From: Escherichia coli
GTDB lineage: Bacteria > Pseudomonadota > Gammaproteobacteria > Enterobacterales > Enterobacteriaceae
Strand: one strand, 5' to 3'
NCBI RefSeq assembly: GCF_003334405.1
Contig: NZ_QOWM01000004.1
DNA length: 64,000 nt
The notes under the pieces were generated by a model that was given only the letters and a program-made list of their open reading frames with translations, was not told where the DNA came from and did not search any database. The position numbers were made by a program, and so were the translations under genes. Positions 9,656 to 63,191 of the stretch are shown here, one piece after another (the first letter of the stretch is position 1; each line of letters opens with the position of its first letter).

Positions 9656-10192
9656 ATGCGTCGCGCTAACGATCCGCAACGGCGAGAAAAAATTATCCAG
9701 GCCACGCTGGAGGCGGTGAAACTTTACGGAATACATGCTGTTACGCACCGCAAAATTGCTACCCTTGCCGGGGTACCGTTGGGATCGATGACCTACTATT
9801 TTTCAGGAATTGATGAGTTGTTACTGGAGGCGTTCAGCAGTTTTACTGAGATCATGTCCCGGCAATATCAGGCATTTTTTAGCGATGTTAGTGATGCTCC
9901 GGGCGCATGCCAGGCTATCACCGATATGATCTACAGCTCACAGGTTGCAACGCCGGATAACATGGAGCTGATGTACCAGCTCTACGCGCTGGCTAGCCGA
10001 AAACCGCTATTAAAAACGGTAATGCAAAACTGGATGCAGCGCAGTCAGCAAACGCTCGAACAATGGTTTGAACCCGGAACCGCCCGCGCGCTTGATGCGT
10101 TTATTGAGGGGATGACGCTGCATTTTGTCACCGACCGTAAGCCGCTATCGCGCGAGGAGATTTTGAGGATGGTTGAGAGGGTTGCAGGGTAG
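9656..10192 (+). CDS. rcdA: TetR-family regulator RcdA/YbjK (178 aa)
   Basis: Track ORF 9626..10192 trimmed to [15 protein letters not shown]...; TetR-type N-terminal HTH. Confidence 0.85.
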
Positions 10193-10211
10193 TAGATAAG
10201 TTTTAGATAAC

Positions 10212-10290
10212 AAAAAACCCATCAACCTTGAACCGAAATGGCGGGGTTGATGGGCTCCACAAAATGGGGACATCAAAGAAAAGCAGTGGC
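10212..10290 (-). ncRNA. rybB: Small RNA RybB (sigma-E dependent, Hfq-binding), about 79 nt
   Basis: Minus strand reads gccactgcttttctttgatgtccccattttgtggagcccatcaaccccgccatttcggttcaaggttgatgggtttttt, the RybB sequence as I recall it, ending in a terminator hairpin plus U-run; lies in the rcdA-ybjL gap where rybB maps. Confidence 0.85.
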
Positions 10291-10296
10291 ACTAAT

Positions 10297-10324
10297 TAAG
10301 ACTGATGCCCTGCGGAAAAGTTCT
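10297..10324 (-). promoter_or_regulatory. Putative sigma-E promoter of rybB
   Basis: Minus strand upstream of the RybB 5' end reads GAACTT, 16-nt spacer, TCTTA, matching the sigma-E -35/-10 pattern. Confidence 0.55.
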
Positions 10325-10366
10325 GCGGTTGTGCAAAAAAATTTCATTTTCAGGGCAACTTCAGTT

Positions 10367-45145: not shown

Positions 45146-45466
45146 ATGGGTAAAACGAACGACTGGCTGGACTTTGATCAACTGGCGGAAGAAAAAGTTC
45201 GCGACGCGCTAAAACCGCCATCTATGTATAAAGTGATATTAGTCAATGATGATTACACTCCGATGGAGTTTGTTATTGACGTGTTACAAAAATTCTTTTC
45301 TTATGATGTAGAACGTGCAACGCAATTGATGCTCGCTGTTCACTACCAGGGGAAGGCCATTTGCGGAGTCTTTACCGCCGAGGTTGCAGAAACCAAAGTG
45401 GCGATGGTGAACAAGTACGCGAGGGAGAATGAGCATCCATTGCTGTGTACGCTAGAAAAAGCCTGA
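45146..45466 (+). CDS. clpS: ClpA adaptor ClpS (106 aa)
   Basis: Track ORF; recognised protein. Confidence 0.93.
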
Positions 45467-48116: not shown

Positions 48117-48204
48117 TGGCGGTGAGGGGGGGATTCGAACCCCCGATACGTTGCCGTATACACACTTTCCAGGCGTGCTCCTTCAGCCACTCGGACACCT
48201 CACC
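48117..48204 (-). tRNA. serW: tRNA-Ser (anticodon GGA), 88 nt
   Basis: Minus strand reads GGTGAGGTGTCCGAGTGGCTGAAGGAGCACGCCTGGAAAGTG...GGTTCGAATCCCCCCCTCACCGCCA: class II tRNA with long variable arm, anticodon loop CT-GGA-AA, T-loop GGTTCGAATCC, 3' CCA encoded. Confidence 0.92.
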
Positions 48205-62953: not shown

Positions 62954-62973
62954 TACCCAATTTTTCTGAATCT

Positions 62974-63000
62974 AAAAAGCGCCTGCGGGCGCTTTTTTTG
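62974..63000 (+). terminator. Rho-independent terminator of serS
   Basis: aaaaagcgcc-tgcg-ggcgc hairpin followed by ttttttt. Confidence 0.75.
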
Positions 63001-63191
63001 TCTCCCTTTGATACCGAACAATAATTACTCCTCACTTACACGTAATACTACTTTCGAGTGAAAATCTACCTATCTCTTTGATTTTCAAATTATTCGATGT
63101 ATACAAGCCTATATAGCGAACTGCTATAGAAATAATTACACAATACGGTTTGTTACTGGAATCAATCGTGAGCAAGCTTGAGTGAGCCATT

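Follow-up and report, generated by a model that had tools for sequence, protein, structure and literature searches.

What occupies the short gap between the convergent genes rcdA and ybjL of Escherichia coli, and does it hold a gene in its own right? The DNA under study, hereafter the window, is a stretch of 64,000 nucleotides from contig NZ_QOWM01000004.1 of assembly GCF_003334405.1. A sequence-only reading of it had proposed that the minus strand of this gap encodes the small RNA (sRNA) RybB behind a sigma-E-type promoter, and that the terminator of the sRNA also serves ybjL. Such a proposal raises several questions. Is the RNA really RybB? Is the promoter-like sequence a promoter, or a coincidence? 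Might the RNA be a fragment of the ybjL message, the element a bare terminator, or the transcript a coding one? Where do the transcripts of ybjL end?

Knowledge of RybB dates from 2001-2003, and that of its control by sigma-E from 2006. We conclude that the element is almost certainly rybB itself, an independent, sigma-E-transcribed gene for a trans-acting sRNA. In this analysis the conclusion is based on the identity of the rybB sequence, membership of the RNA family, the geometry and conservation of the promoter, covariation in the terminator and synteny; nothing was found to contradict it. The finding is already known, as E. coli rybB with its sigma-E promoter, and there is nothing new in the element.

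The locus and its counterpart in K-12

The gene and its neighbours are placed as follows.

9656-10192, plus strand: rcdA, convergent with rybB and 3' of it (from correspondence with the K-12 annotation)
10212-10290, minus strand: rybB, encoding the 79-nt RybB sRNA (79/79 against NC_000913.3 887979-888057; Rfam RF00110), with +1 at G10290
10367-12052, minus strand: ybjL, co-oriented with rybB and 5' of it (from correspondence with the K-12 annotation)

From 10290 to 10212 the minus strand reads GCCACTGCTTTTCTTTGATGTCCCCATTTTGTGGAGCCCATCAACCCCGCCATTTCGGTTCAAGGTTGATGGGTTTTTT, 79 nt, with GTTATC next. Comparison with the annotated gene, one of the checks suggested with the original proposal, gives 79 of 79 nucleotides identical to rybB of E. 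coli K-12 MG1655 (b4417, complement 887979-888057), which in that genome is annotated between rcdA and ybjL on the complement strand. The identity extends over the whole spacer (10193-10366, 174 nt between the stops of rcdA and ybjL; 174/174). The intergenic location given by the sequence-only reading is correct, and in the 5.5 kb surrounding rybB a single base differs from K-12, at 12168 in the ybjL leader. The 3' end of RybB is 17-19 nt from the rcdA stop codon. On the other side the ybjL stop (10367) lies 76 nt before the rybB +1, both being on the minus strand. The context described for rybB in Salmonella and E. coli is the ybjK(rcdA)-ybjL spacer, 3' of ybjL and on the same strand (PMC1804206), and the copy in the window is likewise co-oriented with and 3' of ybjL.

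The rybB spacer is present as a single copy in 5419 of 5426 complete E. coli genomes. The annotation produced by the NCBI pipeline (PGAP) carries no feature at the locus in the E. coli RefSeq genomes sampled, and it is true, as had been remarked, that the element is invisible to a track of open reading frames. To call it hidden is fair for routine PGAP annotation but not for the K-12 reference, where rybB is annotated. As a discovery the element carries little weight. The practical point is that a core single-copy gene is without a feature in the sampled PGAP annotation, and the recovery of rybB, including its promoter, from raw sequence provides a useful positive control.

Two further observations concern these sequence comparisons. 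Small records labelled as plasmids, NZ_CP019246.1 (45 kb), NZ_CP148399.1 and NZ_CP148584.1 (74 kb), contain the rybB spacer at 97.7% identity; the remaining 'plasmid' matches are mostly megabase-sized and resemble mislabelled chromosomes. In the ybjL leader, the K-12 Term-seq data (PMC7815308 supplement) include an 'orphan' 3' end at 889895, corresponding to about 12128 on the minus strand of the window and 76 nt 5' of the ybjL start codon, which suggests premature termination or processing. Position 12168, the sole difference from K-12 in the 5.5 kb compared, falls in the same leader.

RNA family and comparative sample

A scan of the whole window with Rfam matches the RybB model RF00110 to 10209-10287 on the minus strand, with 105.3 bits against a gathering score of 40 bits and E = 1.3e-20, covering positions 1-79 of a 79-position model. 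This was the other check suggested, and the element passes it.

Orthologous loci were collected using one genome per species and an exact 22-nt stretch of the RNA, ACTGCTTTTCTTTGATGTCCCC, which returned at least 120 loci. The genera among the matches listed include Escherichia, Salmonella, Citrobacter, Enterobacter, Klebsiella, Serratia, Yersinia, Xenorhabdus, Providencia and Proteus, with others. Full flanks were present in 113 of these loci (at least 120 in all), and conservation was calculated over 114 Enterobacterales sequences. RNA positions 4-25 are the search key, so their invariance arises by construction and is not independent evidence; the promoter columns were anchored on the 5' end of the RNA and none is part of the key. 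Synteny with ybjL was counted on the 109 listed loci with at least 400 nt upstream.

Elsewhere in the window several other elements were noted. The segment 47986-48073 (plus strand), flanked by clpA and by the serW tRNA gene (minus strand, 48120-48204), contains a type I-F-like CRISPR repeat that is perfect over its 28 nt, GTTCACTGCCGTACAGGCAGCTTAGAAA (Rfam CRISPR-DR4, 50.1 bits), then a spacer of 32 nt and a second, degenerate repeat, GTTCACTGCCGTACAGACAGATAAAATG. The arrangement resembles a minimal orphan array, which we take to be the known clpA-infA CRISPR site of E. coli. A full-length match to STnc130, an enterobacterial sRNA family in Rfam, lies at 62967-63101 on the minus strand (140.1 bits against a threshold of 55) and ends in a GC hairpin and U-run. 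On the plus strand, 22985-23065 matches Rfam naRNA4 (75.5 bits), a REP-like double hairpin, and 21963-22005 matches ES036 at 42.2 bits, barely over the threshold of 37.6.

Structure of the RNA

Three features of the RNA are placed as follows.

10275-10290, minus strand: single-stranded 5' seed GCCACUGCUUUUCUUU (upper-case in the Rfam consensus; positions 1-3 invariant)
10216-10256, minus strand: terminator hairpin, a 12-bp stem (RNA 35-46 with 64-75) and an inner 3-bp stem in the minimum free energy (MFE) fold
10210-10217, minus strand: terminator U-run UUUUUUGU (from the sequence and the Term-seq 3' end), the first two U closing the stem and so overlapping the hairpin

The fold of the 79-mer has an MFE of -25.2 kcal/mol (z = -3.48), and none of 200 shuffles is as stable. 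Six of the 12 base pairs in the terminator stem are G-C, and U6 follows the stem. The minus-strand RNA of roughly 79 nt with a terminal GC hairpin and U-run, as first described, is therefore present at 10290-10212. A simple terminator scan missed the hairpin because it allows loops of 3-8 nt and that of rybB exceeds 8 nt; our own scan and the fold both detect it. In the Term-seq data the dominant K-12 3' end is at 887977, or 10210 in the window, which gives an 81-nt RNA ending UUUUUUGU (Adams et al. 2021, PMC7815308 supplement). This mapped main end is 2 nt beyond the end of the 79-nt gene (10212).

In the stem both sides change in seven of the 12 pairs, and over 94 distinct sequences pairing is kept in 98.3% of cells. 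When the three-helix structure was tested as a whole, none of 500 shuffles reached its covariation score, and slid controls had 21-50% of cells paired. The T-run columns are invariant or near-invariant in the RNA alignment among the species listed. The RNA thus ends, as RybB does, in a Rho-independent terminator with covariation support and U6. By analogy with other sRNAs bound by Hfq, the U-tail may double as the 3' Hfq-binding site.

At the other end the conserved RybB seed, GCCACUGCUUUUCUUU, is found in the window. RNA positions 1-3 (GCC), which are outside the search key, are invariant in 114 of 114 sequences among the species listed, and the Rfam RybB consensus is upper-case, that is highly conserved, across the 5' seed stretch. 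One helix of the MFE fold, CCAC(2-5) with GUGG(31-34), which would sequester the seed, was considered as a conserved feature and rejected: it displays no covariation, and the A4:U32 pair is broken in 26 of the 94 distinct sequences. That this helix is unsupported agrees with a free 5' seed.

Could the transcript code for a small protein, or be a dual-function RNA? The list of open reading frames contains a 43-codon frame at 10276-10145 on the minus strand, with TTG and ATG starts inside RybB. The frame has no stop codon within the RNA; it passes through the terminator and ends 65 nt beyond the mapped 3' end, there is no Shine-Dalgarno-like sequence before it, and the remaining frames are closed or lack a start. 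The compensatory changes in the stem are the pattern of a structured RNA and are not codon-like. With no stop codon before the terminator the coding reading of the 43-codon frame was rejected, and a protein-coding or dual function is scarcely credible.

The sigma-E promoter

Upstream of the RNA two features were identified.

10297-10324, minus strand: sigma-E core promoter, with -35 AGAACTT(TT) (10324-10316) and -10 (G)TCTTA (10302-10297) on either side of a 16-nt spacer
10334-10340, minus strand: T-tract TTTTTTT at about -50 to -44, with three columns at least 90% conserved among the 114 species listed

Reading down from 10324 the minus strand is AGAACTTTT CCGCAGGGCATCA GTCTTA ATTAGT and then GCCACTGCTTTTCTTTGATGTCCCCATTTTGTGGAGCCCATCAACCCCGCCATTTCGGTTCAAGGTTGATGGGTTTTTT. 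The motif first reported, GAACTT-N16-TCTTA, is at 10323-10297 (GAACTT at 10323-10318, TCTTA at 10301-10297) and has no second match on either strand of the window; 6 nt separate the -10 box from G+1 (10290). A minor correction is that the -35 element is best given as AGAACTTTT, the consensus being GGAACTTTT. The published sigma-E consensus is GGAACTTTT with GTCAAA, and the rybB boxes are described as conserved (Papenfort et al. 2006, PMC1804206). The rybB -35 element agrees with the consensus at eight of nine positions and its -10 element, GTCTTA, at four of six, with TC..A retained. The arrangement is that by which a sigma-E promoter is recognized: a -35 element of the GGAACTT(TT) type, a spacer of about 16 nt, a TCnnA -10 element and a start about 6 nt further on.

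How much weight can such a motif bear? An expectation of zero chance occurrences for the exact GAACTT-N16-TCTTA string was rejected as a test, the pattern having been taken from the sequence itself. The generic form GAACTT-N15-17-TCNNA has two matches against 1.26 expected over 128 kb (both strands), which is chance level. The stricter GGAACTT form has no match in the window because the first G is A at rybB. The sigma-E motif by itself is not significant; its position 6 nt 5' of the RNA, together with its conservation, is what makes it non-chance. The second generic match, GAACTT-N17-TCAAA at 45173-45200 on the minus strand, is antisense within clpS. It is probably a chance occurrence without meaning, since the total of two in the window fits the 1.26 expected.

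The conservation is position specific. Among the species listed G-33 is kept in 113 of 114 sequences and A-32 to T-27 in all 114 (GAACTTT overall), as are G-12, T-11, C-10, A-7, T-1 and G+1 (114/114). Columns between the boxes are 38-70% conserved over the 114 species listed. Boxes that stay fixed while the spacer drifts are, on this comparative evidence, the pattern to be expected where a functioning sigma-E promoter starts transcription at a fixed site. The boxes are retained also in the 20 listed loci that do not have ybjL upstream. No sigma-70-like promoter is present in the rcdA-ybjL spacer.

Since the T7 tract has no stable hairpin before it, it probably represents an UP-element belonging to the sigma-E promoter and not the end of a terminator for ybjL. 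A/T-tract UP-elements have been described for sigma-E promoters including that of rybB (PMC3326320).

Published experiments point to the same promoter. In SELEX with the K-12 RpoE holoenzyme, the highest of all peaks in the genome (55-fold) fell between rybB and ybjL (Shimada et al. 2017, PMC5493296). In Salmonella, deletion of rpoE reduces rybB promoter activity to near background (Papenfort et al. 2006, PMC1804206). Rhodius et al. 2011 (PMC3326320) place the rybB promoter with the active core promoters and with the strong competitors in in vitro transcription, and rybB constructs that begin at the -35 box and reach +20 show activity (PMC3326320). Taken with the conservation in the 114 listed species, these K-12 and Salmonella experiments uphold the assignment of the promoter to sigma-E.

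An element consisting of a terminator for ybjL, or a bidirectional one for ybjL and rcdA, together with a chance sigma-E-like motif and no functional sRNA, would fit the chance-level count of the generic motif and a hairpin that sits between convergent genes. It would leave unexplained the invariance of GCC at positions 1-3 in the 114 listed species, the conserved Rfam stretch 5' of the hairpin with the fixed spacing of the boxes, and the full-length, 105-bit match to the RybB model. Nor does the hairpin suit rcdA. On the plus strand it is followed by CTCCACAAAATGG, which has no U-run and makes a poor intrinsic terminator, and the Term-seq lists contain no plus-strand 3' end for rcdA; a bidirectional terminator also serving rcdA is not supported. 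Genetic evidence of RybB function has been published (PMC7815308, PMC1804206, PMC4102768), and the published northern blots and seed-mutant genetics, which apply to the identical K-12 sequence, refute a bare terminator. We regard that explanation as negligible.

The relationship with ybjL

Synteny raises another alternative. In 89 of the 109 listed loci the gene immediately 5' of rybB, in the same orientation, is ybjL, and in all but one of those 89 the aligned end of ybjL is 68-107 nt before the rybB +1. By comparison rcdA is a far less constant neighbour, being downstream in just 42 of 103 listed loci and often not adjacent. An RNA of the size of RybB might then be a 3'-UTR product, released when RNase E cuts ybjL read-through transcripts, with the promoter-like boxes incidental. 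The frequent linkage would suit such an origin, as would a co-oriented ybjL that ends 76 nt upstream without a terminator of its own, and embedded sRNAs such as MicL form a known class (PMC4102768). Processing does not account for boxes held at a set distance from +1 throughout the 114 listed species, including the 20 loci without ybjL. It is also at odds with the genome's strongest in vitro binding of RpoE holoenzyme in the spacer (PMC5493296), with promoter fusions that lose activity in the Salmonella rpoE deletion (PMC1804206) and with the activity of the constructs running from -35 to +20 (PMC3326320). Origin by processing is very improbable, and cleavage of ybjL transcripts is at most a minor extra source of RybB. 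Independent transcription from the sigma-E promoter is the reading that we retain.

Does the rybB terminator nevertheless serve ybjL? The sequence-only reading presented this as established. It is plausible that ybjL transcripts also end there, because the two genes run in the same direction, 76 nt separate the end of ybjL from the rybB start, and ybjL has no terminator of its own before the sRNA. A search for a hairpin with a T-rich tail found no other terminator in those 76 nt, and the best candidates between the ybjL stop and the promoter are irregular, at -4.5 to -9.1 kcal/mol compared with -23 kcal/mol for the rybB terminator. In the listed loci linked to ybjL the median spacer candidate is -1.5 against -22.7 kcal/mol for the rybB terminator. 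A wider rescan of the 89 listed loci, reaching into the end of ybjL, gives a median of -5.0 kcal/mol and no clean canonical terminator.

The loci where rybB does not follow ybjL, which among the matches listed include those of Proteus, Providencia, Xenorhabdus and others, provide a useful comparison. Five to seven of the 20 listed have a clean 12-16 bp terminator just 5' of the rybB promoter, and among the matches listed such terminators are confined to species where rybB is not behind ybjL. In five loci of Proteus and Providencia (L054, L056, L060, L077 and L098 of our list) the sigma-E boxes are kept and the clean terminator of the neighbouring gene stands just before the promoter.

Mapping of 3' ends is compatible with a shared terminator. 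Term-seq gives a very strong 3' end at rybB (PMC7815308 supplement), a signal that is not divisible between RybB and the ybjL mRNA, and the passages naming rybB, ybjL or rcdA give no minus-strand 3' end 3' of the ybjL stop other than that of rybB. The literature searched contained no report of ybjL-rybB read-through or of a full-length co-transcript, and the SMRT-Cappable-seq supplements name neither ybjL nor rybB. A Rho-dependent or processing-derived 3' end may be an alternative for ybjL. The claim of a shared terminator thus fits the sequence, the comparative data and the 3' end mapping; the word 'established' goes too far for an inference for which we found no direct evidence.

The second file of the Term-seq supplement lists position 887972, about 10205 on the minus strand of the window, a little beyond the rybB terminator, where it is antisense to the final part of rcdA. 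Its ratio is 2.5 (p = 2e-5), in a comparison that we take to be with bicyclomycin (Rho inhibition). If the file is that comparison, Rho may stop leakage through the intrinsic terminator of rybB.

The tandem of ybjL and rybB is perhaps more than a convenience, given that it is kept in 89 of 109 listed species at 68-107 nt in all but one, with no terminator between the genes. Read-through transcripts of ybjL with the whole of RybB embedded in them might give a sigma-E-independent trickle of RybB-like RNA, or transcription of ybjL and a sigma-E polymerase parked on the very strong rybB promoter might interfere mutually; we consider either to be unlikely, though less so than an origin of RybB by processing. 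If true, interference would couple expression of an inner-membrane transporter to the envelope-stress response.

Proposed mechanism and published function

The sigma-E dependence, Hfq binding and targets of the rybB copy in the window are expected to be those that published work gives for K-12, where the sequence is identical, and for the orthologue in Salmonella. Unfolded outer-membrane proteins would lead to active sigma-E and so bring polymerase to the AGAACTTTT-N-GTCTTA promoter (10324-10297). Transcription would start at G10290 and stop at the hairpin and U-run (10256-10210) to give an RNA of about 80 nt, which Hfq would bind. The single-stranded 5' end, GCCACUGCUUUUCUUU, would then pair with many omp mRNAs, ompC for example, blocking their translation and hastening decay, and the lowered synthesis of porins would feed back on sigma-E activity. 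Transcripts from ybjL would most likely stop at the rybB terminator also.

Several of these steps have experimental backing. RybB accelerates the decay of multiple omp mRNAs in Salmonella (PMC1804206), and in E. coli overexpression of sigma-E induces RybB (Guo et al. 2014, PMC4102768). In the same study both RybB and MicA were bound by Hfq, the pair had 31 target mRNAs between them, and the promoters of the two sRNAs ranked with the strongest of the regulon (PMC4102768). Seed pairing was demonstrated genetically with the rybB-M3 mutant and a compensatory change in the sponge FtsO, and an effect on ompC was reported (Adams et al. 2021, PMC7815308).

Comparison with known systems

The closest system is RybB itself (RF00110; K-12 b4417), with which the element in the window shares the same 79 nt, the spacer, the flanking rcdA and ybjL, the promoter boxes, the terminator and a full-length match to the model. 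Within the element there is no difference between K-12 rybB and that of the window.

MicA resembles RybB in being sigma-E-dependent and bound by Hfq, in having boxes like GGAACTTTT and GTCAAA, and in repressing omp mRNAs under envelope stress (PMC1804206; PMC4102768). It differs in that the sequence is unrelated, the gene occupies the luxS-gshA spacer, the seed is another one and the targets are mainly centred on ompA. The Rfam scan of the window gave no match to MicA.

The sRNA described in PMC4102768 offers a parallel for the arrangement with ybjL. It has its own sigma-E promoter near the end of a co-oriented gene and a terminator that would also serve the upstream mRNA, as is implied for ybjL and rybB. 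The promoter of that sRNA is inside coding sequence, whereas that of rybB is entirely beyond the stop codon of ybjL. Unlike that sRNA, rybB is found without ybjL upstream in 20 of the 109 listed loci and is, in conventional terms, a free-standing intergenic gene.
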